Positions 8,793 to 56,026 of a DNA stretch of 64,000 nt are shown piece by piece. The notes under the pieces are model-generated. The model made no database searches, was not told the origin of the DNA, and worked only from the letters and a program-made list of their open reading frames with translations. Each line of letters begins with the position of its first letter. Position 1 is the stretch's first letter. Source of the DNA: a virus (Duplodnaviria; Heunggongvirae; Uroviricota; Caudoviricetes); the IMG/VR virus record IMGVR_UViG_2703718869_000013, positions 33,127 through 97,126 of that record. One strand, given 5' to 3'. The position numbers and the translations under genes are program-made.

Positions 8793-8809
8793 GAAATTTA
8801 TTAGAGCAA
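8793..8809. promoter_or_regulatory. C1-operator-like site upstream of kilA
   Basis: aaatttattagagcaaa matches the reverse complement of the P1 C1 operator consensus ATTGCTCTAATAAATTT at 16 of 17 positions. Confidence 0.6.
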
Positions 8810-8888
8810 ATTTTTCTGACTCGATCCAGATCGGGTTGGACGATCTGCTCAGAAACCTGCCAGTTTGCTGGCAGGTTTTTTTCTTTTG

Positions 8889-9932
8889 TTAACCTATTGC
8901 TACTGGTTTTAACAAACCAGCATCAAGTAGCTTGCGAGTTAACCACTGCTGGCCTTTACCCGTTAATTGGGGCGTCAGCCGTATCTGGTAGCCATTTTCA
9001 TCATCCAGCACCACTTCTTTCACCGTGAAATACCCGGCGTTAATGTACTGCTGGCGCGGTACGTTTTTGCGCGCACCAAAAGCCATGAGAATGCCGTTCT
9101 GGCGCAACCATGAGAAAAGGGCGTTTTGCTTAAGTCCAACGACCTTTGCAAAGTTCCCGATCAGGATTCCATTAGCCGCTGATACCCGGTCGGCAAAATC
9201 GACTTTAGGGGCTGCGGCCACCAGCTGTTGTTCCAACTGCATTTTCTGTTCTGCCAACTCGGCAGCCAGGCGTAGAGCTTCTGGTAATGTTTGGGGGATC
9301 GATGGGGTAGGGGAGTTTGCCTGCTGCAATTCTTCCAGTTTGTCGATCAGCGAACGGCGGACCGCTTTTGACTCGCGCGCGGCGACTCGCAAGGCTTGTT
9401 TGTAGGTCATGGTGATGACCTCAAAAGAGCGCCCAGCCCTTGTGCCATGGGATTTTGCACTTTTTGTGTAAAATTCACCTTCAAGTTCATCGAGTATTTT
9501 TTCGATGAATTTATTGTTTCTAACCTCTGGTTCTCCACATAACTTGCGTGCCTCATTGACCATCTTCAACAATGTTTGGCTGTCGATTGTGTCTCCGGTG
9601 TTGGGGATGACATTCACGGCTGGTGTTGGCGTAGCTGACGTAACAGGTGCTGGTTTCTCAACATTCAAATTTTTACCGGTCACTCTATGTGCCTCCTTTC
9701 TCATTTCTGCTGCCACCGTTGCGTAACGTAGACGTCCTTGTTCAATCAAATAATCCCTGATCTCGGCTATCAGTAGCCTGTTGATCACAGCCTTATCTGT
9801 TCGGGTATAAAAACGCCTGGTTATCATGAAATAGTTGGCAATTGCGCCGGGGATCTCCCGTGTCGGCATACAGGCAGTATGCAGGGCGATTGCTTCGGCT
9901 ATGTCATTACGGGTGACGAGAGGTTTTTTCAT
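8889..9932 (-). CDS. ant: antirepressor Ant (immI-like module A)
   Basis: 347 aa with a conserved ANT C-terminal domain; start overlaps the stop of a 73-aa icd-like ORF (ATGA), indicating translational coupling. Confidence 0.75.
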   Translation of the reverse strand: MKKPLVTRNDIAEAIALHTACMPTREIPGAIANYFMITRRFYTRTDKAVINRLLIAEIRDYLIEQGRLRYATVAAEMRKEAHRVTGKNLNVEKPAPVTSATPTPAVNVIPNTGDTIDSQTLLKMVNEARKLCGEPEVRNNKFIEKILDELEGEFYTKSAKSHGTRAGRSFEVITMTYKQALRVAARESKAVRRSLIDKLEELQQANSPTPSIPQTLPEALRLAAELAEQKMQLEQQLVAAAPKVDFADRVSAANGILIGNFAKVVGLKQNALFSWLRQNGILMAFGARKNVPRQQYINAGYFTVKEVVLDDENGYQIRLTPQLTGKGQQWLTRKLLDAGLLKPVAIG

Positions 9933-10150
9933 AAAACCCCCTGAACGTCGGCAGAGAAGGGGAGGTTCCAGTAACTAAGTGAATTGCGCGAGTTAGTTGA
10001 AAAACGGGCAGTAAAAATGCAGGGGCCATCAGGCAATTGAGAGCGTGCTTCGTCTTCTGTTGCTGCGATAACGAAGTGATAGTGGTGTTTTTTACAGGAA
10101 TAGAAACGCCAGATGAATTCTTGGCGTGCGCAAGGATTGGCATTAACCAT
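9929..10150 (-). CDS. icd: Icd-like small protein (module A)
   Basis: 73 aa (MVNANPCARQEFIWRF...), conserved in four copies, each directly upstream of and overlapping an ant gene. Confidence 0.6.
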   Translation of the reverse strand: MVNANPCARQEFIWRFYSCKKHHYHFVIAATEDEARSQLPDGPCIFTARFSTNSRNSLSYWNLPFSADVQGVL

Positions 10151-10224
10151 AGTTACGGCCTCACTAACAGGTTTAACAACCTGCTACCCGCTGTCAAACA
10201 GGTGGCAGGACGTGACAGGGTTGA

Positions 10225-10300
10225 CAGACTGGCGTTAGTGAAACCAGCAGGCCGAAGCCTCCCCATCACGCCCCACCATAATTCGGGCGTAACGCGGTTT
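10225..10300 (-). ncRNA. c4: c4-like antisense RNA (module A), approximate ends
   Basis: Conserved core (ggtggggcgtgatggggaggcttcggcctgctggttt on the minus strand) followed by heptamer CACTAAC; complementary GTTAGTG occurs upstream (plus 10345-10351) and at the icd RBS (plus 10162-10168). Confidence 0.55.
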
Positions 10301-10397
10301 ACGGACACAAAAATACCGCAATATCGGAAATCTGCGGTTGTCCGCACTAACATTCAGGCTGTCAAACCTGGTCGCAGAATTTGCTACGACGGCAGAA

Positions 10398-10425
10398 CTA
10401 TAAGCCTGAACGATTAAAAGGTCAA
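10398..10425 (-). promoter_or_regulatory. sigma70-like promoter of module A (TTGACC-N16-TATAGT)
   Basis: Reverse complement gives ttgacc then 16 nt then tatagt; the same element is conserved upstream of modules B and C. Confidence 0.5.
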
Positions 10426-10463
10426 TATGATGCGAAAAGATAGCATTCGCGACTTAAAAATAC

Positions 10464-10480
10464 AAATTTATTAGAGCATT
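10464..10480. promoter_or_regulatory. C1-operator-like site between module A and the sim locus
   Basis: aaatttattagagcatt, 16 of 17 match to the operator consensus; adjacent palindrome tttgtgcaataaatgcacaaa. Confidence 0.55.
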
Positions 10481-14247: not shown

Positions 14248-17200
14248 ATGGAAAGAAAAAACGCCAATATTGACGATGTTATAAGGACAGTTGAAACCGC
14301 CAGCGCGAAAGAGCTGGAAGAGCTTGCAGGTATTCGGGAAGCTGTTGAAGATTTGAAAGGGGAACGAGTTGCAACTGTTGATCCTGTCTCTCGCAGTGTG
14401 TCGGCATTAAATCGCACAATCGAAAATTCCCGGCCAGACTTTGTGGCCAATGCGCCATCCGTGGACCCTATTGTTGAGGCAATGAAACGGCTTAATTTAG
14501 GGGACGTTTCTCGTGTAGTTCAGGAGGATGTTGCTCTAGAGGAACCGCAGGCCAAATCAACTACGCGAAAGGGTAAAAAACGACGCAAGAAGGCTATAAC
14601 AGAAGATGTAAAGGCGCAACGGACCGAAGCAGCCGAACACGCTCGCGAAATGTTCGGTCAAAAAGGCGGTGCGCAAAAAAGCCAAAACCAACGCGATGCG
14701 CGTGGTCGTTTTATTGGAAAGTCAGGGAGTAAGGCCGCAGCGGAAGATGCCCGTGCTGAACGTGCTGAAAAGGCCAGGCGCAAAGAGGATGATGAGCGTC
14801 TAAATGCTGAATCAGGTTTATTAAAAAAACTGTCAAAAGTAGCTGAAGGCATAGGTAACCCTTCAGAGACTCGTGCCGTCGATGCGTTAGGTTATGCCGT
14901 TGCTGGTCCATTGTGGGCAGCAGGGAAGGAGCTTGGCGGGATATCAAAAGAAGTTGGTGGATCGCTTAATGGTGCCAGAAAGTCTATTGCCGATGTGATT
15001 CGTGGCAATGACGATAACAGCCGTAGAAAAGGTTTTTTTAGGCGTAAATCGCAAAATAGTGCCGATGTCGTTCAGATTAACACCCAAAAACGGACGGTTC
15101 AGGAACTTCAGGATCAGACCAGCGAAATTAAAGAGGGCAATGACAAGATTCTCAGCGCCCTTGATCAGATAGCCAAAAACACCGGGAAAAAGAAGGGCGG
15201 CTTGCTGTCCAAATTATTTAGCCTGTTAGGGAAGGGGGCCGGTGGTATTGCCTCCCTTATTTTTGGCCGTGGGGCACTAAAGAAAGTTGGCTCGATGGCA
15301 CTCGGCGCTTTAGGTATTAAGGGGGTAGGGAAACTAGGGATTAAGGCGGTCGCAAAAGGCGCTTTACGTGCAATTCCGCTAGTCGGCACGGTGGCTGGAG
15401 GTATCTATGATGCGGTAACCGGTTGGAATGATATAGAAGCGCAACGCCGAGCGTTTGGGCTTAAATCAGGACAAGATCCATCATTCCAGCAAAAAGCCGC
15501 TTATACGTTAGCTAATGTTCTTGATATGGGGGGACTGGTATCTGGTATTAGCAGCGCCATTGGTGAGGTTCTCAAATCACTTGGATTTGAGGATATCGGC
15601 AATATGTTGCAATCATTTTCGACGGAAAGTATTGCCCAGGCCATTGATAGCGGGGTTACCAACTTAGAAACATATATTTCTAATCTTGGCGACACCATTT
15701 CTACCAAGTTCGATGATTATACAGCAAAGATTGGTGATGCTATTTCTGCATGGTTCAGTGACACCACAAAGAATCTGAACGAAAAATTAGACGCCATCAA
15801 AAACTTCTTTACTGTCGATAACCTGAAACAGGTTTTCAGTGATGCAATTGATAGTGCAATTGATTTCATTAAGAATCCTGGGAAATACATTAAAGAGGCT
15901 GGCAGTAATCTATGGAGTGCCGCAAAAGAGCTTTCAGGTGAGGTTGCAGATGCCGCTGTTCAGAGCACCCCTGTGGCCTGGGTTGCATCAAAGCTAGTCA
16001 ACAAAGCGGATGCGAAAGAGGTTACACCTGAATTAAAAACACCAGCTAAAGAAAGTCAGGAGGACAATGCTCCTAAGACTGAATATACCCCTAAAAAGGC
16101 TAATATTGTCACTCGTGTTGTAAATGCATCCCTAGATACGGCGAAAGATAGCAATAAAACAGTTAAAGAAACTGCCAATCAGATTATCAATGCAAATGCC
16201 GTAGAAACGGGCAATCGCGCGTTGCAGAAAATTGATAATGCTATTGGTCAAAATAGCTCATCATCATCGTCGCTTAATACTACTGGCACCAGGAATGACA
16301 TTCAGAAAGCTGCGGATACCTACAACAATGGCAACTTAGATGTAAAAGTCGGAAGCCTTGGCGCTGAAGGTAAGGCAAATCTCGATAAGTTGGCTCCGTA
16401 TTTTGCTGAACTAGAGAATAAATATGGCCTTCCTGAAGGTACTCTTTACGCGATCGCTGCAACTGAATCTGGTGGTGATCCTAACGCAAAATCTACGCTT
16501 ACAAGATCACCAAATGGAAAGCTAAGTGGTGGCGCTCTCGGAATGTTCCAGTTTACGAGCGTTGCTCGTGAGGAAACTGGATTATCCCGGGAAGATTCTT
16601 TTAATCCGGAAAAATCGGCAGAAGCTGCGGCTCTTCTCATGAGCAAGTATCTGAAGCAAGCCAATGGAGACTTAAACGAGGCCATCACTGCATATAACGC
16701 TGGGTTTGGCACTATCAATAAGTGGAAAAAAGGCACAGGTGACTTATCGAAAGAAAACCGTGAGTACGCGATCAAGGTCAATACTCATCGTGCTCGCTAT
16801 TTGGGTGGTGAAATCTATACACCTGGAGCAGGAGCACAGGGTGGGGCGCAATATGGAGTGAGGGGACCACTGCCTGATAACGCCGTTATCGATCAGTCTA
16901 CTGGCCTGGCGTTTACCCCTGGTGATAGCCCGTTTGAGAAAGGCGGTCTGGTAGACAAAATCGGCAATGCTGTTGGCGTTAACGATCTGGTCAACAAATT
17001 CATGAATGGCCGGGGGATGCGTCGGGAAGTCGTTCAGGGAACCCTCGAAGAACGTGCACGAGGAAGGGGAACCGCAACGGCAGCTGGCAATGTGTATGTT
17101 GATACACCTATGCCAGTTGAAGAGGCACGTCCGGTAGCAAACAACTCAAGTTACTTTGACCAACTCGGTGCACAAATGGGGATTGATGGGCTGTATGACA

Positions 17201-23576: not shown

Positions 23577-24154
23577 TGACATTCAGAATGAGTGAACAAT
23601 CACGGACCATAAAAATTTATAATCTACTGGCTGGAACCAATGAGTTTATTGGTGAAGGTGATGCATACATTCCACCTCATACAGGTCTGCCTGCAAACAG
23701 TACCGATATTGCCCCGCCAGATATTCCGGCTGGCTTCGTGGCCGTTTTCAACAGTGATGAGGCATCGTGGAATCTCGTTGAAGACCATCGGGGAAAAACC
23801 GTCTATGACGTGGCTTCCGGCGACGCGTTATTTATTTCTGAACTTGGCCCATTACCGGAAAATGTCACCTGGTTATCCCCGGAAGGGGAGTTTCAGAAGT
23901 GGAACGGCACAGCCTGGGTGAAAGATGCAGAAGCAGAAAAACTGTTCCGGATCCGGAAGGCGGAAGAAACAAAAAACAGCCTGATGCAGATGGCCAGTGA
24001 GCATATTGCGCCACTTCAGGATGCCGTAGATTTGGATATTGCGACGGAGGAAGAGGCATCGTTACTGACTGCATGGAAGACATATCGGGTATTGTTGAAT
24101 CGTGTTGATACAACAGTAGCATCGGATGTTGAGTGGCCAGTCGCCCCGCAATAA
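23576..24154 (+). CDS. tfa: tail fibre assembly protein (lambda Tfa-like)
   Basis: 192 aa, [44 protein letters not shown]..., near-identical over most of its length to lambda Tfa as I recall it. Confidence 0.85.
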
Positions 24155-35338: not shown

Positions 35339-36016
35339 TCACTCCACTACAAACCAGTCACATGCCAGTAAGTCGCCTACAGAAGGAACCCACGGAACAA
35401 CTACACCTTGTGCATTTTTTAAGGCGAAATAAGCACCATACGGAACGAGGTCGCCGGGGAAATATCCCTTAATGGCTTCCATTCGTGCCGGGTACTGTCC
35501 TTCAGGAACCAGCCAGCAGAATTGGTTTTCGCCGTTCCACCCGCGTCGGGCAACTTTCTTGCCATCCTTCAGCCACATCAGCGCGTCAGAAAAGTCGGCT
35601 GCTTCAAGGTCGATTTCTTCTTGTAGAGTAGCGATACCGCCAGCAGAAATAGTTACGTCCCTGGCTGTAATGAATGTCACCCCATTGTGACCTTCAATGC
35701 TGAGCGATACCCCATTTTCGAAGAAGTCGTTAGTCCGACTAAAGCCTTCTTCAAATGTTTTTTCTGGCGAATAGGACAGAGATCCGTCCTCATAAGCGAC
35801 CAGATATCCGCCAATTTCTGGTCGGTGTTTTTGCAAAAATATTTTATCAACATGGACTTTTACCCCTTCTGGCTCAACGACTTCGATGTTGCAAAAAAGG
35901 ACCACATCCATTAGGGCGATAATTTCGATATCTTTGATTTTTGAGGCGCGAACTGTTTTATGGCTTTTGTATTTTGGAAGTGCCGTCAAAAGCTCTTTCG
36001 TTGTCATGTTATTCAT
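35339..36016 (-). CDS. protein with C-terminal DUF2829 / Tad2-like domain (candidate anti-defence sponge)
   Basis: C-terminal 80 aa FSDALMWLKDGKKVARRGWNGENQFCWLV...WVPSVGDLLACDWFVVE fit the DUF2829 pattern as I remember it (F-x-E/D-A-L..LK-x-GKKV-x-R-x-GW...DLLA-x-DW). Confidence 0.5.
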   Translation of the reverse strand: MNNMTTKELLTALPKYKSHKTVRASKIKDIEIIALMDVVLFCNIEVVEPEGVKVHVDKIFLQKHRPEIGGYLVAYEDGSLSYSPEKTFEEGFSRTNDFFENGVSLSIEGHNGVTFITARDVTISAGGIATLQEEIDLEAADFSDALMWLKDGKKVARRGWNGENQFCWLVPEGQYPARMEAIKGYFPGDLVPYGAYFALKNAQGVVVPWVPSVGDLLACDWFVVE

Positions 36017-36721: not shown

Positions 36722-36738
36722 AAATTAATTAGAGCAAT
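36722..36738. promoter_or_regulatory. C1-operator-like site in the divergent ssb / lyz promoter region
   Basis: aaattaattagagcaat, 16 of 17 match to the operator consensus (reverse complement orientation). Confidence 0.55.
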
Positions 36739-37683: not shown

Positions 37684-37717
37684 ATTGCTCTAATAAATTT
37701 GATTTATTAGAGCAAAT
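37684..37717. promoter_or_regulatory. paired inverted C1-operator-like sites upstream of module B
   Basis: ATTGCTCTAATAAATTT (perfect consensus, 37684-37700) followed by inverted atttattagagcaaat (37702-37717). Confidence 0.7.
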
Positions 37718-37741
37718 AACCTACCATCGAACACGGCTCTA

Positions 37742-37770
37742 TTGATCTCATCGTCGTTCAGGCTTATAGT
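37742..37770 (+). promoter_or_regulatory. sigma70-like promoter of module B (TTGATC-N17-TATAGT)
   Basis: ttgatc 37742-37747, tatagt 37765-37770. Confidence 0.5.
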
Positions 37771-37869
37771 TCCACCGTCGTAGCAAATTCTGCGACCAGG
37801 TTTGACAGCCTGAATACTTGTGCGGACAACCGCAGATTTCCGATATTGCGGTATTTTTGTGTCCGTAAA

Positions 37870-37950
37870 ACCGCGTTACGCCCGAATTATGGTGGGGCGT
37901 GATGGGGAGGCTTCGGCCTGCTGGTTTCACAAGTGCCAGTCTGTCAACCC
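37870..37950 (+). ncRNA. c4: c4-like antisense RNA (module B), approximate ends
   Basis: Core ggtggggcgtgatggggaggcttcggcctgctggtttca followed by a' CACAAGT (37928-37934) and b' CTGTCA; complementary ACTTGTG at 37816-37822 and 38000-38006, and TGACAG upstream and downstream. Confidence 0.6.
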
Positions 37951-38017
37951 TGTCACGTCCTGCCACCTGTTTGACAGCGGGTAGCAGGTTGTTAATTCAA
38001 CTTGTGAGGCCGTAACT

Positions 38018-38239
38018 ATGGTTAATGCCAATCCTTGCGCACGCCAAGAATTCATCTGGCGTTTCTATTCCTGTAAAAAACACCACTATCACTTCGTTAT
38101 CGCAGCAACTGAAGACGAAGCACGCTCTCAATTGCCTGATGGCCCCTGCATTTTTACTGCCCGTTTTTCAACTAACTCGCGCAATTCACTTAGTTACTGG
38201 AGCCTCCCCTTCTCTGCCGACGTTCAGGGGGGTTTATGA
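38018..38239 (+). CDS. icd: Icd-like small protein (module B)
   Basis: 73 aa, stop overlaps the ant start; RBS overlapped by the ACTTGTG target heptamer. Confidence 0.6.
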   Translation: MVNANPCARQEFIWRFYSCKKHHYHFVIAATEDEARSQLPDGPCIFTARFSTNSRNSLSYWSLPFSADVQGGL

Positions 38240-39279
38240 AAAAACCTCTCGTCACCCGTAATGACATAGCCGAAGCGATCGCCCTGCATACTGCCTGTAT
38301 GCCGACACGGGAGATCCCCGGCGCAATTGCCAACTATTTCATGATAACCAGGCGTTTTTATACCCGAACAGATAAGGCTGTGATCAACAGGCTACTGATA
38401 GCCGAGATCAGGGATTATTTGATTGAACAAGGACGTCTACGTTACGCAACGGTGGCAGCAGAAATGAGAAAGGAGGCACATAGAATGACCAGTAATAATT
38501 TGAATGTTAAAAAACCAGCATCTGTTGCTTCAGCTACGCCATCACCAGCTGTGAATGTTATCTCCAACACTGGAGATACAATCGACAGCCAGACGCTGTT
38601 AAAGATGGTTAATGAGGCGCGCAAGCTATGTGGGGAAAATGAGATCCGCAATAACGATTTTCTCAATAGAATTAAGGATGAACTTGATGGGGAATTTTAC
38701 GAAACTTTCGTAAAATCCCATGGCACAAGGGCCGGGCGCTCTTTTGAGGTCATAACCATGACCTACAAACAAGCCCTGCGAGTCGCCGCGCGCGAGTCAA
38801 AAGCGGTCCGCCGTTCGCTGATCGACAAACTGGAAGAATTGCAGCAGGCAAACTCCCCTACCCCATCGATCCCCCAAACATTACCAGAAGCCCTACGTCT
38901 GGCTGCCGAGTTAGCAGAACAGAAAATGCAGTTGGAACAACAGCTGGTGGCCGCAGCCCCTAAAGTCGATTTTGCTGACCGGGTATCAGCGGCTAATGGA
39001 ATCCTGATCGGGAACTTTGCAAAGGTCGTTGGACTTAAGCAAAACGCCCTTTTCTCATGGTTGCGCCAGAACGGCATTCTCATGGCTTTTGGTGCGCGCA
39101 AAAACGTACCGCGCCAGCAATACATCAACGCCGGGTATTTCACGGTGAAAGAAGTGGTGCTGGATGATGAAGATGGTTACCAGATACGGCTGACGCCCCA
39201 ATTAACGGGTAAAGGCCAGCAGTGGTTGACGCGTAAACTGCTCGATGCAGGTTTATTAAAGCCTGTAGCGGCTGAGTGA
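38236..39279 (+). CDS. ant: antirepressor Ant (module B)
   Basis: 347 aa, about 90 percent identical to the module A Ant by eye; conserved ANT C-terminal domain. Confidence 0.75.
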   Translation: MKKPLVTRNDIAEAIALHTACMPTREIPGAIANYFMITRRFYTRTDKAVINRLLIAEIRDYLIEQGRLRYATVAAEMRKEAHRMTSNNLNVKKPASVASATPSPAVNVISNTGDTIDSQTLLKMVNEARKLCGENEIRNNDFLNRIKDELDGEFYETFVKSHGTRAGRSFEVITMTYKQALRVAARESKAVRRSLIDKLEELQQANSPTPSIPQTLPEALRLAAELAEQKMQLEQQLVAAAPKVDFADRVSAANGILIGNFAKVVGLKQNALFSWLRQNGILMAFGARKNVPRQQYINAGYFTVKEVVLDDEDGYQIRLTPQLTGKGQQWLTRKLLDAGLLKPVAAE

Positions 39280-39354: not shown

Positions 39355-42085
<2,731 letters not shown>

Positions 42086-42387
42086 TTAATTAGAACAATT
42101 CACATCATGTTTGAACGGAATTTAACACTAGTCACTTGTTAAGGATTACCAATGAACAAGCTATCTATGTGGTGTTTCGCTGTTCAAGTGTCAGCGAAAT
42201 ATTGAAATATATTAGTGCAATAACATTTCATCGGGCGCCGATTAGATACGGCGTGGAAAAGGTGGAAGGCAAAAGCTATGACCGACTACGCCGGACGTGA
42301 AATAATATGTCCACACTATCTGATACAATAAAACCGAATAGGACATAACTTCGACGTCAAAGCCTTGGCACAGGCTGGAGAGAAAAC

Positions 42388-42636
42388 TTGAAAAAGCGAT
42401 ACTACACAGTAAAGCATGGGACGCTACGAGCATTACAAGAGTTTGCTGACAAGCATAACGTTGAGGTGCGCAGGGAAGGGGGAAGTAAAGCTCTGCGCAT
42501 GTACCGTCCGGACGGGAAATGGCGTACGGTCGTCGATTTCAAAACTAACAGTGTTCCCCAGGGCGTCCGCGATCGGGCATTCGAAGAATGGGAGCAGATC
42601 ATCATAGATAATGCTCTGCTACTAAATGCTGACTGA
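42388..42636 (+). CDS. hypothetical small basic protein
   Basis: 82 aa; faint resemblance to HicA/YcfA-type small RNA-binding toxins (GSKALRMYRPDGKWRTVV) but lacks the His and any adjacent antitoxin ORF. Confidence 0.3.
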   Translation: MKKRYYTVKHGTLRALQEFADKHNVEVRREGGSKALRMYRPDGKWRTVVDFKTNSVPQGVRDRAFEEWEQIIIDNALLLNAD

Positions 42637-42674: not shown

Positions 42675-43409
42675 TTATTTTCCAGATAATAACTGATGTT
42701 TTGCATATTCACGTGGCGTGCAATTATAATATTGCCTGAACAGGCACACAAAGTACGATGTACTACTAAAGCCACAGCTTTCTGATACTTGTTTGACTGA
42801 ATGATTTTGCTTTAGTAATTTAATAGCGAAAGCCATCCGTGTATCAAGTAATAACTTACTGAAGGAGGTGTTTTCCAATAATAGTTTTTTCTTTATTAAG
42901 CTTTCACTCATGTAGAGATAATCGGTTAGGTCTCTTAGTTTCCAGTGTTTAGATACATCTGAAAGAAATATGCTGCGCACTTTCCCTGAGAAAGTGGGCA
43001 TACCAGACGTAAGAAATGCTCTAAAGTTATCAACATCATTAAAAATTGAGAGTAATGAAAAAGTTACTGCCTCCCTAAAATCAGAATGGATATGATTTTG
43101 GTCGCTTATATTATCGATCATCCTGATTAATAAATCAGGATAGGCAAAAGACTTTTTTAGCAAATGTGGACACTTATCCAGCGATTGGTTTCCAAGGTTG
43201 TTGCTGCATAATAAATAGTTTCTTACGGTATTATCATTGAGTTCGAATTCTATATATTTGTCTGAATACATTTTTAAGCATTCATGCTCAGAATGCTTAA
43301 GCAACAACACATCACCGTAATTTAATATCAAGAAATCCTTAAGAAATTGAAAGCTTATAGGTTTCTTTATGAGTATGAAGTAACAAACTGCTGACATGGC
43401 CACCACCAT
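42675..43409 (-). CDS. AraC-family transcriptional regulator (AppY/EnvY-like)
   Basis: C-terminal helix-turn-helix region LIKKKLLLENTSFSKLLLDTRMAFAIKLL...GFSSTSYFVCLFRQYY closely resembles E. coli AppY as I recall it; AT-rich gene. Confidence 0.8.
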   Translation of the reverse strand: MVVAMSAVCYFILIKKPISFQFLKDFLILNYGDVLLLKHSEHECLKMYSDKYIEFELNDNTVRNYLLCSNNLGNQSLDKCPHLLKKSFAYPDLLIRMIDNISDQNHIHSDFREAVTFSLLSIFNDVDNFRAFLTSGMPTFSGKVRSIFLSDVSKHWKLRDLTDYLYMSESLIKKKLLLENTSFSKLLLDTRMAFAIKLLKQNHSVKQVSESCGFSSTSYFVCLFRQYYNCTPREYAKHQLLSGK

Positions 43410-43535
43410 TCTAAAGAGGCTTTGAATAAGAATAGAGATAGCCAGGCTCAGAAATCAAGAAGTTGTGTAAAAATAAAATTATTGATTTATGTCACATTTT
43501 TTGATTGTTTTAATTGATGTTTTTCAATATTATCA

Positions 43536-43559
43536 CAAACAAACAAACAAACAAACAAA
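43536..43559. repeat. tetranucleotide microsatellite (CAAA)6 in a divergent promoter region
   Basis: Six perfect tandem CAAA units between the divergently transcribed AraC-like and EAL genes. Confidence 0.95.
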
Positions 43560-43661
43560 TAAATTGACATTTAATCTACAAAAGTAGAGTGTAACTCTTG
43601 TAAATATAGGGGGCTCGTTATCTGAGCAAAATCAAGCAATTTAAAACTTGAGGGTGGGGAT

Positions 43662-44351
43662 ATGGAAGTTATCTACATTGCAGAACCAATCATTTCTACG
43701 AGCACGAACAAGTTGATTGCAGTAGAAGTGTTAAGCAGATTTCGCTCCAAAGATGGTGTCGCTCTTCCTACTCAAAGAGTATTGGGTATGTTTACCAATA
43801 AGATGAAGATTAATTTACTTAAATCACAACTTAACACAATAATGAAATACAAGTGTTTTTTTGAACGCCATAATATACTATGTTCTATTAATGTAGATTA
43901 TGATACATGTATATATATATACAGTAATAAACAAACTCAAGAGTTAATTAAAAACAATAAATTTATAGCTCTTGAGATATCAGAAAACTACCCTGATTTA
44001 AGCGATGAGGATTACGTTATACCCTTTCTCCTGACTTTGACAGACTATGTTTGGCTTGATGATTTTGGAAGTGGCAACACCACCATGAAAACATTAATTA
44101 AAAATAAATACCATGCAATAAAACTTGATAAGGCCTTTTTCCAAGAATATGGGACTAATCCTCATTTTGATGTCATTATTAGTAATTTAAAAAAATTATG
44201 CCCGAATATCATCGCTGAAGGTGTTGAAAACATTGAGTGTCATAAGCTATCAAAAGGGATAGGGCTATGGGGTGCCCAGGGATATTTTTTTCCATCAATT
44301 CCTCTGGTGGAGATTGAGTCCATAGATAGTAAGTGGCTATCAGATTTATGA
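43662..44351 (+). CDS. stand-alone EAL-domain c-di-GMP phosphodiesterase (PdeH/YhjH-like)
   Basis: 229 aa with conserved EAL catalytic motifs: EVL, EISE, DDFGSGNTT, KLDK, EGVE, QGY; architecture and length like E. coli PdeH. Confidence 0.8.
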   Translation: MEVIYIAEPIISTSTNKLIAVEVLSRFRSKDGVALPTQRVLGMFTNKMKINLLKSQLNTIMKYKCFFERHNILCSINVDYDTCIYIYSNKQTQELIKNNKFIALEISENYPDLSDEDYVIPFLLTLTDYVWLDDFGSGNTTMKTLIKNKYHAIKLDKAFFQEYGTNPHFDVIISNLKKLCPNIIAEGVENIECHKLSKGIGLWGAQGYFFPSIPLVEIESIDSKWLSDL

Positions 44352-45049: not shown

Positions 45050-45309
45050 AGCTCCCCCTACAAAAAAGAAAAGCCACCAGCGGCGGCTTAGCAATACAAC
45101 TGAAGGTAGCGCCCGGTACTCAGACTGTGCCGTCCATGGAATATTTGAAAAGGGATCCATCCGTACCGGGCGTGTGATGATTTTGACTGAAGTCACTTGT
45201 CAGTTGTCAATTATTTATTATTAAAAATAATATATTTATTAGTGCATACAAATAATACACTAAGTGTGCACATTGCAACCTCAGAGAGGAAACATTCAAC
45301 CAGATTGTT

Positions 45310-45326
45310 ATTGCTCTAATAAATTT
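45310..45326. promoter_or_regulatory. C1-operator-like site upstream of module C
   Basis: ATTGCTCTAATAAATTT, perfect match to the consensus, followed by a degenerate inverted copy. Confidence 0.7.
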
Positions 45327-45496
45327 GATTTATTGGGGCAAATAAACTACTATTGGACGCCAGACTATTGATCTTCCTGTTGTTCAGGCTTATAGTTCCT
45401 ACGCCGTAGCAAATTCTGCGACCGGGTTTAGCAGCCTGAATGTACATGCGGACAACCGCAGATTTCCGATATTGCGGTATTTTTATGTCCGTAAAA

Positions 45497-45577
45497 CCGC
45501 GTTACGCCCGAATTATGGTGGGGCGTGATGGGGAGGCTTCGGCCTGCTGGTTTCATGTACGCCAGTCTGCTAACCCC
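45497..45577 (+). ncRNA. c4: c4-like antisense RNA (module C), approximate ends
   Basis: Same core as module B; a' CATGTAC (45554-45560) with targets GTACATG at 45442-45448 and 45626-45632; b elements TAGCAG / CTGCTA instead of TGACAG / CTGTCA. Confidence 0.6.
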
Positions 45578-45643
45578 GTCACGTCCTGCCACCCGTTTAG
45601 CAGCGGGTAGCAGGTTGTTAAACCTGTACATGAGGCCGTAACT

Positions 45644-45865
45644 ATGGTTAATGCCAATCCTTGCGCACGCCCTGAATTTATCTGGCGCTTTTACTCCTGC
45701 CAGAAACGCCACTATCACTTCGTTATTGCACCGACAGAAGATGAGGCACGTTCTCAGCTTCCGGATGCTCCCTGCATTTTCTCCGCACGCTTTTCTACTG
45801 ACTCGCGCAATTCTCTCAGTTACTGGTGCCTCCCTGTTAACGCTTCTGTTCAGGAGGGGCTATGA
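45644..45865 (+). CDS. icd: Icd-like small protein (module C)
   Basis: 73 aa paralog; stop overlaps the ant start. Confidence 0.6.
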   Translation: MVNANPCARPEFIWRFYSCQKRHYHFVIAPTEDEARSQLPDAPCIFSARFSTDSRNSLSYWCLPVNASVQEGL

Positions 45866-46974
45866 GAACGTCATTAGTCACCCGTGAAGAGATGATCGAG
45901 GCAATTGAACAGCACACAATCTGTATCAGCACCAGGGATATACCAGGCGTTATTGCCAACTACTTCATGATCACCAAACAACTTTACCGGAGAAAGGACA
46001 AGAACGCGGTTCACCGTATCCTGTTGTCTGATATCCGCGAATACCTGCTCGAACAGGGTCATCTGAATTACGCAACCGTCGCAGCCGAAGCACGCAAGGA
46101 GGCACACAGAATGAAAGCAACTAACGTTAAATCAGAAAAAATTTATGCACCTTCAGTTCAGGAATCGGAACTGGTGGTTGTTCAGAATCAGCCGGATGAA
46201 ATTCCCGTTCTGGAATGGCAGGGAGTACGTGTCGTAACAACCGAAACTCTTGCTAGAGGGTATGGGGTCGATGAAGCCAATATTCGCAACAATTTGTCTC
46301 GCAACCTTGACCGCTTTGAAGAAGGTAAGCATTACTTTCTTCTAACTGGTTTAAAATTAAGAGAATTTAAGAACAGAGTAACCGGAAGTTACTCTGTTGG
46401 TAAGAACGCCAGAAGCCTTACACTCTGGACAGAGCGCGGCGCTGCACGCATGTCTAAGATCGTGGACACAAATGAAGCATGGGCATTCTTTGAAAAACTG
46501 GAAGACAGCTACTTCCGGCAAAAAGAACAGCAACCGGTCGCAATCCCTCAGACGCTTCCCGAAGCTCTGCGCCTGGCTGCCGAGCTGGCTGAACAAAAGC
46601 AACTTCTGGAACAGAAAGCCCACCAGCTAAATCAGCAGCTGGTGGCCGCCGCCCCTAAAGTCGATTTTGCCGACCGGGTATCAGGGGCCAAGGGGATCCT
46701 GATTGGAAATTTTGCAAAGGTTGTTGGGCTTAAGCAAAACGCGTTGTTTGCCTGGTTACGGGGGAACGGCATCCTGATAGCGTCCGGTGGACGTAAAAAT
46801 GTGCCGTTCCAGCAATACATCAACGCCGGGTATTTCACGGTGAAAGAAGTGGTGCTGGATGATGAAGATGGTTACCAGATACGGCTGACGCCCCAATTAA
46901 CGGGTAAAGGCCAGCAGTGGTTGACGCGTAAACTGCTCGAAGCTGGCTTGTTAAAACCGGTGGCGGCTGAATGA
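45862..46974 (+). CDS. ant: antirepressor Ant, type 2 (module C)
   Basis: 370 aa; different central domain from modules A/B (AntA/ORF6N-like, PVLEWQGVRVVTTETLARGYG) plus the shared ANT C-terminus. Confidence 0.75.
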   Translation: MRTSLVTREEMIEAIEQHTICISTRDIPGVIANYFMITKQLYRRKDKNAVHRILLSDIREYLLEQGHLNYATVAAEARKEAHRMKATNVKSEKIYAPSVQESELVVVQNQPDEIPVLEWQGVRVVTTETLARGYGVDEANIRNNLSRNLDRFEEGKHYFLLTGLKLREFKNRVTGSYSVGKNARSLTLWTERGAARMSKIVDTNEAWAFFEKLEDSYFRQKEQQPVAIPQTLPEALRLAAELAEQKQLLEQKAHQLNQQLVAAAPKVDFADRVSGAKGILIGNFAKVVGLKQNALFAWLRGNGILIASGGRKNVPFQQYINAGYFTVKEVVLDDEDGYQIRLTPQLTGKGQQWLTRKLLEAGLLKPVAAE

Positions 46975-47213
46975 TTAAAAAAGGCGGCCTTTCGGCCGCC
47001 AATGATGTCACGGAGTCTATAATGGCAATGTCTTCGTAGTTGACTAAAGCCACAACTCAATTATAACAATTAATTATAGCAATAGTGGCTATTTTATTTA
47101 TCGCGAATCACATTTTTTCTCTTCAGTACATGTGTGCTATACTCCTTCTTGATTGATTGGATGCGGAATACAAACCCGCTCTTTTGTGCAGCCTGGCTCC
47201 TTGCCAGGCTTTT

Positions 47214-47525: not shown

Positions 47526-47575
47526 ATGTCACCATAAATATCAAAGAATTAGAGCAATCATTTACGCGTTGATGG

Positions 47576-49506: not shown

Positions 49507-49523
49507 AGAATTATTAGAGCAAT
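49507..49523. promoter_or_regulatory. C1-operator-like site (Op99-type) upstream of coi/c1
   Basis: agaattattagagcaat, 15 of 17 match to the operator consensus. Confidence 0.5.
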
Positions 49524-49583: not shown

Positions 49584-49610
49584 TTGACAATTGCTCTAAT
49601 AAATTATAGT
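49584..49610 (+). promoter_or_regulatory. promoter TTGACA-N15-TATAGT overlapped by a C1-operator-like site (49590-49606)
   Basis: ttgaca 49584-49589, tatagt 49605-49610, with ATTGCTCTAATAAATTa embedded; classic repressor-over-promoter arrangement directing transcription toward coi and c1. Confidence 0.6.
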
Positions 49611-49844: not shown

Positions 49845-50054
49845 ATGGCTTTCATTCAACCAACCATCGACGACGTTAGACATTGCTCTAACGCTTTATC
49901 TGTAGACCCTGCCGAAACCGACGCTGCCCGCGCCATTGCTGAACACTACTCAAAGATATCCAATCAGGAGTACCGCATCACCCAAGACGACCTGGATGAT
50001 CTCACTGACACAATCGAATATCTCATGGCCACTAACCAGCCAGACTCACAATAA
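49845..50054 (+). CDS. coi: Coi-like C1 inactivator
   Basis: 69 aa acidic protein immediately upstream of the c1-like gene, as in the P1 immC region. Confidence 0.55.
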   Translation: MAFIQPTIDDVRHCSNALSVDPAETDAARAIAEHYSKISNQEYRITQDDLDDLTDTIEYLMATNQPDSQ

Positions 50055-50164
50055 ATGCACTAATAAATCTATTATTTTCGTTGGATCCTTCTATAATGGT
50101 GGCCAACAACTCCCAGTGTAATCCGCTGTGAGTTGTTGGCCATGTCAATTCTGGAGGAGGATCA

Positions 50165-51016
50165 ATGATAAATTATGTCTACGGCGAACAACTGTACCAG
50201 GAGTTCGTCAGCTTCAGGGATCTCTTTCTAAAAAAAGCTGTTGCACGCGCCCAACACGTTGATGCCGCCAGCGACGGTCGTCCTGTACGCCCGGTTGTCG
50301 TTCTGCCGTTCAAAGAAACGGACAGCATTCAGGCTGAAATTGATAAATGGACTTTAATGGCGCGGGAACTGGAACAGTACCCAGACCTCAATATCCCAAA
50401 GACTATTTTATATCCAGTGCCTAACATCCTTCGCGGTGTGCGTAAGGTTACAACTTATCAGACAGAAGCTGTGAACAGCGTCAACATGACCGCTGGCCGC
50501 ATTATTCATCTGATTGATAAGGACATTCGCATCCAGAAAAGCGCGGGGATCAATGAGCACAGTGCGAAATACATAGAGAACCTGGAAGCAACAAAAGAGC
50601 TAATGAAGCAGTACCCGGAGGATGAAAAATTCCGTATGCGTGTACACGGCTTTAGCGAAACAATGCTGCGCGTCCATTACATTTCCAGTAGCCCTAACTA
50701 CAATGATGGTAAATCAGTTAGTTACCATGTGCCGCTGTGTGGTGTGTTTATCTGCGATGAAACTCTCCGTGATGGAATCATCATCAACGGTGAATTCGAG
50801 AAAGCAAAATTTAGCCTTTATGACTCTATAGAACCGATCATCTGCGACCGCTGGCCGCAGGCAAAAATATATCGCCTGGCAGATATTGAAAATGTAAAAA
50901 AACAAATTGCCATCACTCGCGAAGAGAAAAAGGTTAAGTCAGCCGCATCAGTTGCGCGCAGCCGTAAAACCAAGAAGGGGCAGCCAGTAAACGACAACCC
51001 CGAAAGCGCGCAATAA
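50165..51016 (+). CDS. c1: C1-like primary repressor of lysogeny
   Basis: 283 aa, P1 C1 size; strong RBS GGAGGAGG; many matches to the C1 operator consensus across the window. Confidence 0.75.
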   Translation: MINYVYGEQLYQEFVSFRDLFLKKAVARAQHVDAASDGRPVRPVVVLPFKETDSIQAEIDKWTLMARELEQYPDLNIPKTILYPVPNILRGVRKVTTYQTEAVNSVNMTAGRIIHLIDKDIRIQKSAGINEHSAKYIENLEATKELMKQYPEDEKFRMRVHGFSETMLRVHYISSSPNYNDGKSVSYHVPLCGVFICDETLRDGIIINGEFEKAKFSLYDSIEPIICDRWPQAKIYRLADIENVKKQIAITREEKKVKSAASVARSRKTKKGQPVNDNPESAQ

Positions 51017-51048: not shown

Positions 51049-52167
51049 TTATTCAGCCGCCACCGGTTTTAACAAGCCAGCATCGAGCAGTTTACGCGTC
51101 AACCACTGCTGGCCTTTACCCGTTAATTGAGGCGTCAACCGTATCTGGTAGCCATCTTCATCATCCAGCACCACTTCTTTCACCGTGAAATACCCGGCGT
51201 TGATGTACTGCTGGAACGGCACATTTTTACGTCCACCGGACGCTATCAGGATGCCGTTCTCCCGTAACCAGACAAACAGCGCGTTTTGCTTAAGTCCAAC
51301 AACCTTTGCAAAATTCCCAATCAGGATCCCTTTAGCTACTGATACCCGGTCGGCAAAATCGACTTTAGGAGCGGCGGCCACCAGCTGCTGATTTAGCTGG
51401 TGGGCTTTCTGTTCCAGAAGTTGCTTTTGTTCAGCCAGTTCGGCAGCCAGGCGTAGGACTTCAGGAAGCGTCTGGGGGATTGCGATCGGTTGCTGTTCTT
51501 TTTGTCGGAAGTAGCTGTCTTCCAGTTTTTCAAAGAATGCCCATGCCTGATCGGTTTCGAGCATTTTAGCGTGGCGGGCTGCGCCGCGTTCTGTCCAGAG
51601 GGTGAGTGAGCGAACATTGCGAGCAATTTTTACAGAGTAGTTTAAAGCTACTCTGTGCTTCAACTCGCGCAATGATTCTCCTTCAACTTTGAAAAAGTGC
51701 TTCCCTTCAACAAAGCGTACTTTGTTCTCATGATGATTTTGGCGAATACGGATTGTTTCTGTCCCATACCCTCTCGCAAGAGTCTCGGTTGTCACTACAC
51801 GCACTCCCTGCCATTCCAGAACGGGAATTTCATCAGACTGATTCTGAACAACCACCAGCTCCGATTCCTGAACTGAAGGTGCATGAATTTTTTCTAATTT
51901 AACGTTATTTGCTTTCATTCTGTGTGCCTCCTTGCGTGCTTCGGCTGCGACGGTTGCGTAATTCAGATGACCCTGTTCGAGCAGGTATTCGCGGATATCA
52001 GACAACAGGATACGGTGAACCGCGTTCTTGTCCTTTCTCCGGTAAAGTTGTTTGGTGATCATGAAGTAGTTGGCAATAACGCCAGGTATATCCCTGGTGC
52101 TGATACAGATTGTGTGCTGTTCAATTGCCTCGATCATCTCTTCACGGGTGACTAATGACGTTCTCAT
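51049..52167 (-). CDS. ant: antirepressor Ant, type 2 (module D)
   Basis: 372 aa, close paralog of the module C Ant. Confidence 0.75.
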   Translation of the reverse strand: MRTSLVTREEMIEAIEQHTICISTRDIPGVIANYFMITKQLYRRKDKNAVHRILLSDIREYLLEQGHLNYATVAAEARKEAHRMKANNVKLEKIHAPSVQESELVVVQNQSDEIPVLEWQGVRVVTTETLARGYGTETIRIRQNHHENKVRFVEGKHFFKVEGESLRELKHRVALNYSVKIARNVRSLTLWTERGAARHAKMLETDQAWAFFEKLEDSYFRQKEQQPIAIPQTLPEVLRLAAELAEQKQLLEQKAHQLNQQLVAAAPKVDFADRVSVAKGILIGNFAKVVGLKQNALFVWLRENGILIASGGRKNVPFQQYINAGYFTVKEVVLDDEDGYQIRLTPQLTGKGQQWLTRKLLDAGLLKPVAAE

Positions 52168-52385
52168 AGTCCCTCCTGAGCAGAAGCGTTAACAGGGAGG
52201 CACCAGTAACTGAGAGAATTGCGTGAATCAGTGGAAAAACGGGCAGAGAAAATACATGGGGCGTCAGGAAGCTGAGAGCGAGCCTCATCTTCTGTTGGTG
52301 CAATAACGAAGTGATAGTGACGTTTTTGGCAGGAGTAAAAGCGCCAGATAAATTCAGGATGAGTTGGGGTAGGGATAGTAGCCAT
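52164..52385 (-). CDS. icd: Icd-like small protein (module D)
   Basis: 73 aa from MATIPTPTHPEFIWRF...; RBS AAGGAGG; the listed 187-aa ORF (to 52727) is an upstream read-through artefact. Confidence 0.55.
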   Translation of the reverse strand: MATIPTPTHPEFIWRFYSCQKRHYHFVIAPTEDEARSQLPDAPCIFSARFSTDSRNSLSYWCLPVNASAQEGL

Positions 52386-52469
52386 ATTGGCAGCCTCCTT
52401 AGACGTTGGTATGTAACCACCGCAGAAGAGACCAATCTTGCTGGCGGTGGACTGTACGGAGTTGGCCTT

Positions 52470-52530
52470 ACTGGCGTCCAAGGTAACCAGCCTACCCGAA
52501 GGTAGCCCCATACAGCCCACCATTGTAGAG
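52470..52530 (-). ncRNA. c4: divergent c4-like antisense RNA (module D), approximate ends
   Basis: Minus-strand core ggtgggctgtatggggctaccttcgggtaggctggtta; loop CTTGGACG can pair with CGTCTAAG at the icd RBS (one G-U wobble); GTCTAAG also upstream (plus 52581-52587). Confidence 0.45.
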
Positions 52531-52703
52531 GTGTGCGTGTACGCCGATACAAAAAAAGACGCGAGCGGCGTCTGTATCGCCTTAGACTTAAGCGGGAGGC
52601 CAATCCCGGCACCCGTTTTAATGAGGTGCCTGATAAGCATAAACCGAAAATGCCTCAAGGCGCAAGAGGTCAGGCTCAATGTAACATCGGTAGTTAAAAA
52701 ACA

Positions 52704-52720
52704 CAATTTATTAGAGCAAA
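52704..52720. promoter_or_regulatory. C1-operator-like site upstream of module D
   Basis: caatttattagagcaaa, 15 of 17 match to the operator consensus. Confidence 0.55.
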
Positions 52721-54208: not shown

Positions 54209-55401
54209 TAATCATCATCCCCGTATAGCTTGCGGGTAACTTCTTCGTCTTCCTCCTCGTCTTCGTCCAGGTCTTGTTCCAGCCATGGTTCGTTTGATAC
54301 ACCTTCAGTATCAACATCTCCATAACCGCCTGTATCAACGATATCGGCGATTTCTTCCCTACGTTGCTCAATCCACAATGCAGCATCGGCGCGGCGGTTG
54401 GCGGCCCGTTCTCGCGCAACTTTGTCCAGATCTTCAAGAGAAGGGCCACCGACGGCAGTTTGCCTTTCCTCATCATCGGTATTTGTCTTAGGAGCACGCA
54501 GATCGGCTTTGATTTGTTCCAGCATCAGGGGCGGCACTTTCCCTCCATGCGCCTCGATGAATTCAGCCGCTTCCAGCACTGACCAGTTATTTTCACGCTT
54601 TCGTTCGTATGCCAGCTTAACAATGCCAGCTTGCCCCATAGATAAAGCGTGCTTTTCCGCCTCCCGGCTTTCTTTTCGATAGTTATTCCGGATGCTGTAA
54701 ATGGTGTTGATCAGGCTGCTTATCTGCGCGGAACAGCTGTTTAGCATGCTCGCGATACGGTATTCAGGCGGAGTACCTTCATCATCGGCTTTTTGCTGAT
54801 CGCGCATTTCCTGCACCAAGCGAATACACGTATCCCTGGCGTTCTCCAGCATAAGGAGATGAGAAAGAGACTTTTCAAGAAGAGTGGTTTCCAGAACATC
54901 GGCCCCGGACCGACGCAACATAGCGCGCGCGGCCTTCCGCGCTTCAACGTTATCTATCAGGTAATCGCCAGCTTCAAATTCAAAGCGTTCACCATCATCA
55001 TCCAGGGTGTCGCGTTCCAGGCGATCACGTAAGGTCCGGTGGGCGCGGGTGATCACGTCATGATCATCTGAACGATCATTTATGCGCTTATTTTGGCGCT
55101 TCGCATTCTCTACTGCGGCACTGACAACGGCATTAACTCTTTGTTTTTCCGCTATTTCCGCCGCAATGTGATCACCTGAATGTTGATCATTAGAGTGATC
55201 AATGATCATGCTTTTTAGTGGCTTCCTGACTGGCTTATTTGGCTTGCGGCTGTCCGCAGTCCTGGTGTCTTCTTTGAAGGCACGGAGATAACGACGTGCG
55301 GTATTAGGGTTAAGATTAAACTCGGCGGCATACTGTGCGATGGTGTAACCACCATCTCGCGCCAGGCGAGCAAAATTCTTTTTGTGATCGTCCCAGGTCA
55401 C
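54208..55401 (-). CDS. pacA: terminase small subunit / pac-recognition protein (PacA-like)
   Basis: 397 aa; contains the clustered TGATCA hexamers characteristic of the P1 pac site within its coding sequence. Confidence 0.75.
55022..55208. other. pac: pac packaging site: two clusters of four TGATCA/CGATCA hexamers
   Basis: Hexamers at 55022, 55050, 55061, 55073 and at 55169, 55184, 55196, 55203, each containing a Dam GATC site. Confidence 0.7.
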
Positions 55402-55486
55402 TTATGCTTCCTTTCGTAAAAACTCTTTTTGACGCGAGGGTAACGAAAGTCACATGTCAAAAGGCCCGGAACGGGCAAGCAATCAA

Positions 55487-55939
55487 TCAGATACGTGCAG
55501 ATGTGGCATTACCGTAATGACGGTGCTGACGGGCCACCTTATTGAAAAGTTGACGCGCCATTACCCAAGGCTGGTGCTCCCGGCGTTCCTTTTCGTCCTG
55601 CGTCATATAGAGTTCGTTCTGGAGTTTTTCATCAAACCGGCGCGGAGCGCGGCTACGGCGAAAGAATTCAGGATTCAGAGAGTGGATCTGAAATCTACGT
55701 GGGCGTGTACTGTCATCAATCAAAACAGACGAATACTTAGACACAGCGATAGCCTTTAAGCGCAGATAAACATCGCGCTTATCGACATCCAGATGCGGGT
55801 ATTCCTTTTCAAGAATTGCTGCGAGTTCTTTCGCTGATAGAAGAGATTTAGTGCGGATCATGTAATCCGCAATCTCGTACGATGTTATTCGTGAGTGATT
55901 TATTTCCATGAAGTGGCGTCCCTGCCAGTTAAGTAACAT
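55487..55939 (-). CDS. lpa: Lpa-like late promoter activator
   Basis: 150 aa basic protein upstream of pacA, preceded by a C1-operator-like site; identification by position and size. Confidence 0.5.
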   Translation of the reverse strand: MLLNWQGRHFMEINHSRITSYEIADYMIRTKSLLSAKELAAILEKEYPHLDVDKRDVYLRLKAIAVSKYSSVLIDDSTRPRRFQIHSLNPEFFRRSRAPRRFDEKLQNELYMTQDEKERREHQPWVMARQLFNKVARQHRHYGNATSARI

Positions 55940-56009
55940 CCTGTCACCTACTGATTAGCCCATGTCAACTAATCAACGTCGAATATAATACCCTCGATTA
56001 AAGAAATAG

Positions 56010-56026
56010 CAATACATTAGAGCAAT
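56010..56026. promoter_or_regulatory. C1-operator-like site upstream of lpa
   Basis: caatacattagagcaat, 14 of 17 match to the operator consensus. Confidence 0.4.

Follow-up and report, generated by a model that had tools for sequence, protein, structure and literature searches.

Probable C1 operators dispersed along a P1-like phage-plasmid, including those of four immI cassettes

In this work, we analysed a stretch of 64,000 nucleotides from a Caudoviricetes virus (IMG/VR record IMGVR_UViG_2703718869_000013, positions 33,127 to 97,126), hereafter the window, in which copies of a 17-bp motif, ATTGCTCTAATAAATTT, lie dispersed. Synteny and protein identities mark the window as part of a P1-like phage-plasmid (Punavirus), and the motifs are very probably the operator set of its P1-type master repressor, C1. 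Moreover, the four ant modules of the window have the make-up of complete, paralogous immI cassettes. A dispersed C1 regulon is textbook P1 biology, reproduced here almost base for base, and the multi-cassette arrangement is a modest extension of it. What appears to be new are the operators on three extra cassettes and two unannotated operator candidates.

The window is syntenic with P1 in the reverse-complement orientation and 94-98% identical to it along most of its length. Compared with P1, a deletion has removed darB and ulx, other genes stand in place of res/mod, and three extra stretches homologous to the P1 immI region (c4-icd-ant) are found at new places. The product of its c1 gene (50165-51016, plus strand) is identical to P1 C1.100 at 281 of 283 positions (99%) and would be the repressor that reads the 17-bp sites. 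Identity to P1 is equally high for the C1 inactivator Coi (68/69; gene at 49845-50054, plus), the C1 corepressor Lxc (82/82; gene at 42388-42636, plus) and the late-gene activator Lpa (150/150). In P1, C1 acts on about 22 dispersed operators with the same asymmetric 17-bp consensus as found here and represses RepL and Lpa; it is antagonised by Coi and by Ant1/Ant2 and helped by Lxc, while C4 RNA blocks Ant synthesis (PMC8546580).

On both strands of the whole window, ATTGCTCTAATAAATTT has 13 matches with at most three mismatches, against 0.39 expected; the largest number in 100 dinucleotide-preserving shuffles was three, and none of them reached 13. We also derived a position-weight matrix, taking as our operator reference set the 20 binding sites that the GenBank annotation of P1 (AF234172) assigns to 'phage repressor C1'. 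The matrix detected 16 window sites at 15 bits or more. A first-order Markov null of the window gave a mean of 0.52 such sites and a maximum of three, and a deliberately unfavourable second-order null, for which just the 10 kb of the window richest in AT (37% GC) served as training DNA, gave a mean of 1.19 and a maximum of four. This training DNA itself includes some of the sites. The annotated P1 operators score 14.5-27 bits, with Oc1b as an outlier at 5.8 bits, and all 17 sites assigned in the window score 14.5-27 bits. That an AT-rich 17-mer simply recurs by chance, and without function, in intergenic DNA of like composition can practically be dismissed: the motif is indeed AT-rich and several sites lie in low-GC intergenic stretches, but chance was rejected under all three nulls and nine sites are identical to annotated P1 operators.

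The motif sites had been reported in a preliminary description of this DNA, which read them as C1 operators and proposed a matrix scan with the P1 operator set as a check, with matches no better than background in AT-rich DNA speaking against that reading. The scan placed the sites far above such a background, and every listed coordinate was recovered (one of them, 8793, being really 8794) with zero to three mismatches to ATTGCTCTAATAAATTT. Seven of the listed sites are base-for-base identical to P1 operators in their P1 positions, namely Op53, Op51, Op21, Op99e, Op99d, Op99a and Op94, and all four ant modules do carry a C1-operator match, as had been claimed. Two sites described as weaker are also present (42205-42221 and 50054-50070), although the first is not weak at all, and the list was incomplete in that the sites at 7029, 45232, 47067, 47542 and 49882 (14.5-19.2 bits) had been overlooked.

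Altogether, 11 window sites are collinear with the C1 sites annotated in AF234172, and nine of the 11 are identical to them in sequence (Table 1). The window shares with P1 the consensus, the repressor and the placement of the operators with respect to genes and promoters. Of the other P1 operators, Odmt, Oban, O26, Oppp, OpmgR and OpmgT fall outside the window or in DNA that has been replaced. Unlike P1, the window has additional putative operators on three further immI cassettes. A consensus promoter scan proved too strict, as it failed on several P1-annotated promoters, among them PkilA, P1coi and Pssb; therefore, the P1 annotation was transferred and the hexamers were compared directly. 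The -35 and -10 hexamers are identical to those of P1 for PkilA, P2c4/P1c4, P2ssb/P1ssb, Plpa, P1coi, P4cre, Pc1 and PrlfA, and because of this identity at homologous positions the operator-promoter relationships of P1 carry over to the window.

Table 1. Probable and candidate C1 operators and immI cassettes of the window (positions from its first nucleotide; a and b, C4 recognition elements)
Feature	Position	Strand	Sequence or parts	Mismatches to motif	Score (bits)	Context
Orlf (Op55) orthologue	7029-7045	-	ATTGCTCTAATTATAAC, identical to P1		17.3	downstream of repL, upstream of rlfA
OrepL (Op53) orthologue	8794-8810	-	TTTGCTCTAATAAATTT, identical to P1	1	23.5	overlaps PkilA -10; kilA-repL (lytic replication)
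Oc4 (Op51) orthologue, cassette A	10464-10480	-	AATGCTCTAATAAATTT, identical to P1	1	25.3	overlaps -35 of upstream promoter P2c4/P51a
Ossb (Op21) orthologue	36722-36738	-	ATTGCTCTAATTAATTT, identical to P1	1	25.4	between divergent ssb and lyz
Putative double operator, cassette B	37684-37716	+ and -	ATTGCTCTAATAAATTTGATTTATTAGAGCAAA, 33-bp palindrome: 37684-37700 (+), 37700-37716 (-)	0 (+); 3 (-)	27.0 (+); 20.3 (-)	
Candidate operator	42205-42221	-	ATTGCACTAATATATTT	2	22.4	frameshifted 5' darB remnant, between prt/darB promoter region and lxc
Omat (Op2b) orthologue	45232-45248	-	TATGCACTAATAAATAT; P1 CATGCACTAATAAATAT, 1 change		19.1	upstream of mat; Pmat -35 identical
Putative operator, cassette C	45310-45326	+	perfect consensus	0	27.0	
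Oref (Op2a) orthologue	47067-47083	-	ATTGCTATAATTAATTG, 2 changes relative to P1		19.2	collinear with P1 1962-1978
Candidate operator	47542-47558	-	ATTGCTCTAATTCTTTG		18.3	between cre stop and c8 start, about 20 nt upstream of c8 start
Oc1e (Op99e) orthologue	49507-49523	-	identical to P1	2	24.3	adjoins lox/cre promoter P4cre
Oc1d (Op99d) orthologue	49590-49606	+	identical to P1	1	25.1	between P1coi -35 and -10; imcAB-coi-c1
Oc1c (Op99c) orthologue	49882-49898	+	ATTGCTCTAACGCTTTA, identical to P1		14.5	inside coi
Oc1a (Op99a) orthologue	50054-50070	+	AATGCACTAATAAATCT, identical to P1	3	22.8	half of bivalent autoregulatory operator at Pc1
Putative operator, cassette D	52704-52720	-	TTTGCTCTAATAAATTG	2	21.3	4 nt from pacB stop; overlaps upstream promoter -35 (TTGTGT)
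Olpa (Op94) orthologue	56010-56026	-	ATTGCTCTAATGTATTG, identical to P1	3		overlaps -35 of Plpa
Cassette A	8889-10480	-	C4 10283-10198, icd 10150-9929, ant 9932-8889; a TTGACAG, b GTTAGTG			native immI; P1 type a/b
Cassette B	37684-39279	+	C4 37885-37970, icd 38018-38239, ant 38236-39279; a TTGACAG, b ACTTGTG			between lydD and pro
Cassette C	45310-46974	+	C4 45511-45596, icd 45644-45865, ant 45862-46974; a TTAGCAG, b GTACATG			replaces ref; a equals P7 a
Cassette D	51049-52720	-	C4 52527-52440, icd-like 52385-52164, ant 52167-51049; a TTGGCCT / TTGGTCT, b GTCTAAGG			between c1 and pacB

The four cassettes, which we refer to as A to D, measure about 1.6 kb each and have a common order of parts, that is, C1 operator, promoter, second promoter, a1/b1, c4, a2/b2, icd and ant. 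Each contains one match to the C4 antisense RNA family of Rfam (RF01695), with 68.8, 68.6, 71.7 and 75.9 bits in A, B, C and D, respectively (gathering score, 45), and in A and B the Rfam family c4-a1b1 also matches, with 55.5 and 57.1 bits. The icd reading frame has 73 codons in all four cassettes and overlaps ant by 4 nt, with the a2/b2 sites located at the icd ribosome-binding site. The ant gene is also intact in all of them (347, 347, 370 and 372 codons from A to D), as are the open reading frames of cassette D in general, and every Ant protein has a KilAC/ANT domain (PF03374, E about 1e-31); in C and D, the central domain is ORF6N rather than that of P1 Ant. In cassette A, Ant and Icd are 97% and 96% identical to their P1 counterparts. 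A recent internal duplication of A into B, C and D was considered and rejected, given that B is 92% identical to the P1 immI region and C and D 69-81% (C, 78-80%), and that the central domain of Ant differs in C and D.

Part order, spacing, C4 RNA, the a1/b1 and a2/b2 targets, the 4-nt icd/ant overlap and the KilAC Ant are all as in the immI regions of P1 and P7. P1 and P7, however, carry a single cassette each, whereas the window has four at four genome positions. In all four, operator and cassette have the same orientation, and the distance from the operator to the downstream icd start codon (ATG) is 330-335 nt. The operators of B, C and D are paralogues of Op51. The upstream promoter, equivalent to P51a/P2c4, is also common to the four: its -35 overlaps the last two or three bases of the operator and is followed by a 17-nt spacer and a TAnnnT -10. 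A second promoter, equivalent to P51b/P1c4, is found about 40 nt downstream and reads TTGAyC-17-TATAGT in A to C (TTGATC-17-TATAGT in B); the four promoter hexamers of cassette A are all identical to those of P1. When the five leaders (P1 and A to D) were aligned, TGCTCTAATAAATT was invariant and the next 40 or so columns were poorly conserved, and such an invariant operator block followed by a diverged leader has the look of a footprint.

Two further observations concern individual cassettes. With 60.8 bits (gathering score, 50), the a1/b1 leader of cassette D (52552-52629) is a match to isrK, an Rfam family known from a Salmonella prophage; this suggests a single kind of element behind both isrK-type leaders and C4 a1/b1 leaders. 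In the immI region of P22, with its sar antisense RNA, and in the isrK region of Salmonella Gifsy-1, a small RNA and a protein repressor keep the antirepressor off during lysogeny. The repressors and operators of these two systems differ from the P1 type, and a P1-type operator is not to be expected in them; the sequence link to the window is this one isrK match. The second observation is that, at 45250-47090, cassette C stands in place of the recombination-enhancement gene ref and runs in the opposite direction. The Oref/P2ref promoter (47060-47088, minus) has been kept; it is directed into the 3' end of the cassette C ant gene and could yield a C1-controlled antisense transcript.

The C4 recognition elements form four different a/b combinations in the window, two of them unlike both P1 and P7 (Table 1). 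In every cassette, the a' and b' elements of C4 pair with their cognate targets at 7/7 positions for a and for b and in both target copies (with G-U pairs in D), and non-cognate pairing is lower. The differences between leaders are concentrated in these elements: ten of the 15 that separate A from B fall in b1, b' and b2, and 15 of the 24 that separate A from C fall in the six a/b elements. Within cassettes, compensatory changes run through all a/b elements. This concentration argues that all four cassettes are functional and that selection acted on RNA specificity. Since the four recognition sequences differ, each cassette is expected to be regulated mainly by its own C4, and the four C4 RNAs would not cross-react.

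The operator of cassette B is peculiar in being a palindrome of two inverted operators, overlapping by 1 bp, that spans the upstream promoter from its -35 (TTGATT) through the spacer. In cassette C, a degenerate inverted second half-site is found at 45326-45342 (10.4 bits). The bivalent operators of P1, Op72ab at ban and Op99ab at c1, likewise consist of two inverted 17-bp sites with their 3' ends inward, covering a promoter. Nevertheless, the P1 sites overlap by 6 bp (28 bp in total, offset 11), whereas the two of cassette B overlap by 1 bp (33 bp, offset 16) and lie about half a helical turn further apart. The cassette B pair therefore falls outside the P1 bivalent type as defined by a 6-bp overlap and 28 bp, to which the Op99ab orthologue of the window (50054-50081) belongs.

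Searching IMG/VR with the Ant proteins returned 159 loci, among which 151 icd-ant cassettes had enough upstream sequence. An operator of at least 15 bits, in the orientation of the cassette and 329-358 nt upstream of icd, was present in 150 of these 151. The only cassette devoid of it (locus L162, IMGVR_UViG_2698536372_000019) is on a contig with three cassettes. The public operators comprise 15 variants, all keeping TGCTCTAAT; the variant of cassette D is the second commonest among them, and the 33-bp type of cassette B is found in 12 of the 150. Regarding the C4 elements, the A/B-type public loci show a and b in many combinations, always co-varying, and at least 12 C4 loop/tail types were recognised among the 85 of 116 unique leaders that could be parsed. 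Cognate and non-cognate run lengths separate the groups only weakly in the public leaders.

Cassettes are also numerous on plasmids. A C4-icd match was found in 687 plasmids of PLSDB, at 1145 places, and in an evenly spaced sample of 60 of these records there were 27 with one place, 25 with two, five with three and three with four. Two or more cassettes are thus present in about half of the P1-like plasmids sampled, and four in a few per cent. One four-cassette plasmid, Escherichia coli pE2865-1 (NZ_AP018809.1), was examined over its whole length. Its cassettes occupy the native position, the ref position, the interval between pacB and c1 and a place downstream of dbn; each has an operator, and their a/b pairs all differ. 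The dbn cassette (69568-71153) represents a fifth insertion site. It has a 33-bp double operator, and its a/b elements (TTGACAG / GTACATG) recombine those of window cassettes A and C.

One negative control was included, phage D6: its C4-icd-antirepressor cassette had no P1-type operator, the best match in 1.8 kb being 7.6 bits. D6 is a distant relative in which lysogeny control differs; in a D6-like prophage, Lxc went undetected (PMC6799933). Earlier papers touch only briefly on additional icd-ant copies, in pSvP1, on an ant gene between pacB and c1 in pTZ20_1P and RCS47 (PMC6906374), and on a second c4-icd region in a D6-like prophage (PMC6799933). Our full-text literature searches found no analysis of the operators or C4 specificities of such extra copies, although an earlier description may exist.

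In the lysogen, C1 together with Lxc would occupy asymmetric 17-bp sites that overlap or abut sigma-70 promoters. This would shut off kilA-repL, the coi-c1 autoregulatory region, lpa, ssb and mat, along with further early functions. The four immI cassettes are each headed by one of the sites (two in the paired case), where the operator overlaps the -35 of the upstream promoter. The second cassette promoter, some 40 nt further on, would be left uncovered by C1, and because of this C1 would throttle only part of cassette transcription, with Ant synthesis being blocked by the cassette's own C4 RNA. Heinrich, Velleman and Schuster are said to have described in 1995, in work on P1 immunity, that the second immI promoter is constitutive. 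According to the P1 record, Oc4 controls c4 expression and C4 represses icd-ant translation at a2/b2. By analogy with P1 and P7, Ant would inactivate C1, and C4 would repress icd-ant in trans with type specificity. Binding of C1 to the operators of the three extra cassettes and to the candidate sites at 42205 and 47542 is what we infer from their sequences.

This scheme modifies the original proposal that one repressor holds the replication, antirepressor, lysis and late-activator functions silent. Replication and late activation agree with it. For the antirepressors it is incomplete, as Ant would be silenced mainly by C4, with C1 acting on the upstream promoter only. Lysis would come under C1 mostly in an indirect way, since the site at 36722 is the ssb operator and the lyz gene of P1 has an Lpa-dependent late promoter.

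A different explanation for the extra cassette operators is that they are passengers, copied along with the cassettes and binding C1 without regulatory consequence, or acting at most as sinks that titrate it. Each cassette has, in fact, a P51b-like promoter downstream of the operator that, together with C4, would decide Ant expression. Moreover, about 15 plasmid-borne operator copies lower the lysogeny frequency of P1 at low multiplicity (PMC8546580), so operator number alone has an effect. We nevertheless consider the passenger explanation improbable. The operator core does not vary, even though overall identity between the cassettes is just 69-81% and the adjacent leader has diverged; the -35 overlap and the 17-nt spacer are kept in all four; the operator is retained at a fixed distance in nearly every public cassette; and a recurrent variant doubled the operator into a palindrome that covers the promoter.

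Based on these data, P1-family phage-plasmids may accumulate self-contained operator-C4-icd-ant cassettes (up to four per genome, at five or more insertion points), with C4 recognition diversified combinatorially and each cassette wired to the resident C1, thereby feeding an arms race of RNA specificities within one repressor family. We propose this tentatively, as a reading that is nearly as likely to be right as wrong. Within it, the 33-bp double operator would be a more tightly repressed variant of the cassette.

Some points weigh against our main interpretation, that of a C1 operator set with four immI cassettes. Close relationship and partial redundancy among the public cassettes (116 unique leaders out of 155) mean that the figure of 150 in 151 overstates the independent evidence. 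The consensus promoter scan called no upstream promoter in any cassette of the window and found the second promoter only in B and C, with none in D. The assignment of the B, C and D operators, as well as that of the sites at 42205 and 47542, draws on homology and conservation. Additionally, the a element is common to A and B, and with G-U pairs counted there is still pairing between their b elements at 4-6 of 7 positions; some cross-talk between A and B is therefore possible.

The two remaining sites, at 42205 and 47542, have no annotated operator counterpart in AF234172, and the promoter scan found no promoter overlapping either of them. The first had been described as lying upstream of prt; a site is indeed present there, but it falls within the 5' remnant of darB, where P1 has no annotated operator, and its target is uncertain. 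Its P1 counterpart (17166-17182) scores 16.6 bits and an identical strong version exists in pE2865-1. The second site has counterparts in P1 (1485-1501, 17.7 bits) and in pE2865-1 (19.8 bits). We regard both as C1-operator candidates only, for which positional conservation makes chance unlikely.

These two could instead be conserved sequences that resemble an operator by accident and lie outside the regulon, which we find possible, though somewhat less likely than not. Their absence from the P1 annotation and the lack of an overlapping promoter in our scan fit this explanation, as does the location of the P1 homologue of the 42205 site, which falls within the coding part of darB, some 100 nt past the predicted promoter of that gene. 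On the other hand, P1, the window and pE2865-1 all have both sites at corresponding positions (16.6-22.4 bits), chance would give only about 0.5 sites of 15 bits or more in the whole window, and both substitutions that distinguish the darB site of the window from that of P1 move it toward the consensus.

The surroundings of the 42205 site are rearranged. At 42076-42636, the darB/ulx deletion has its joint at 42294/42360, corresponding to P1 17093/10026, and the 5' remnant of darB is frameshifted. A promoter-like site spans the joint (42278-42306). All three lxc promoters annotated in P1 have been lost, and the darB promoter region and the 42205 site are now found upstream of lxc; because of this, C1 might control the gene of its own corepressor in the window. 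The same darB-deletion/lxc arrangement is also found in pE2865-1.

Other parts of the window depart from P1 as well. The EcoP1 res/mod genes are replaced at 42675-44351 by an AraC-family helix-turn-helix regulator (42675-43409, minus) and an EAL-domain protein (43662-44351, plus), the latter being a possible cyclic di-GMP phosphodiesterase cargo gene. Beside ssb, in DNA that replaces isaA-IS1-isaB of P1, a 225-codon open reading frame (35339-36016) has a Tad2-like (Thoeris anti-defence 2) domain (PF11195, E 1.6e-22). A TnpB/IS605-family open reading frame with OrfB_IS605 and Cas12f1-like TNB domains is inserted in the dar operon region (29207-30415), and a separate Rfam match, to the IS009 RNA (192 bits), was found near the tail-fibre genes (23919-24117). 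The stretches 59055-62045 and 62391-64000 have no similarity to P1 and contain several open reading frames without a Pfam match (e.g., 59168-60097 and 60592-61146, minus); the P1 region that they replace holds Op88 and the pmgT-pmgV genes.

The present data provide a site-by-site operator map for a P1-like plasmid-phage and indicate that its extra 'ant' genes are complete immI cassettes, each with its own putative C1 operator and C4 specificity, in an arrangement that is common among such plasmids. If the proposed accumulation of cassettes is real, a multi-cassette prophage would produce a set of C4 RNAs and thereby silence antirepressors from several types of incoming immunity, while a superinfecting phage would need just one cassette unrecognised by the resident C4 to inactivate the resident C1. 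It is plausible that several cassettes widen both superinfection immunity and the escape from the immunity of a resident prophage. Cassette number and C4 type should then predict exclusion or induction among the P1-like plasmids that spread resistance genes in Enterobacteriaceae.

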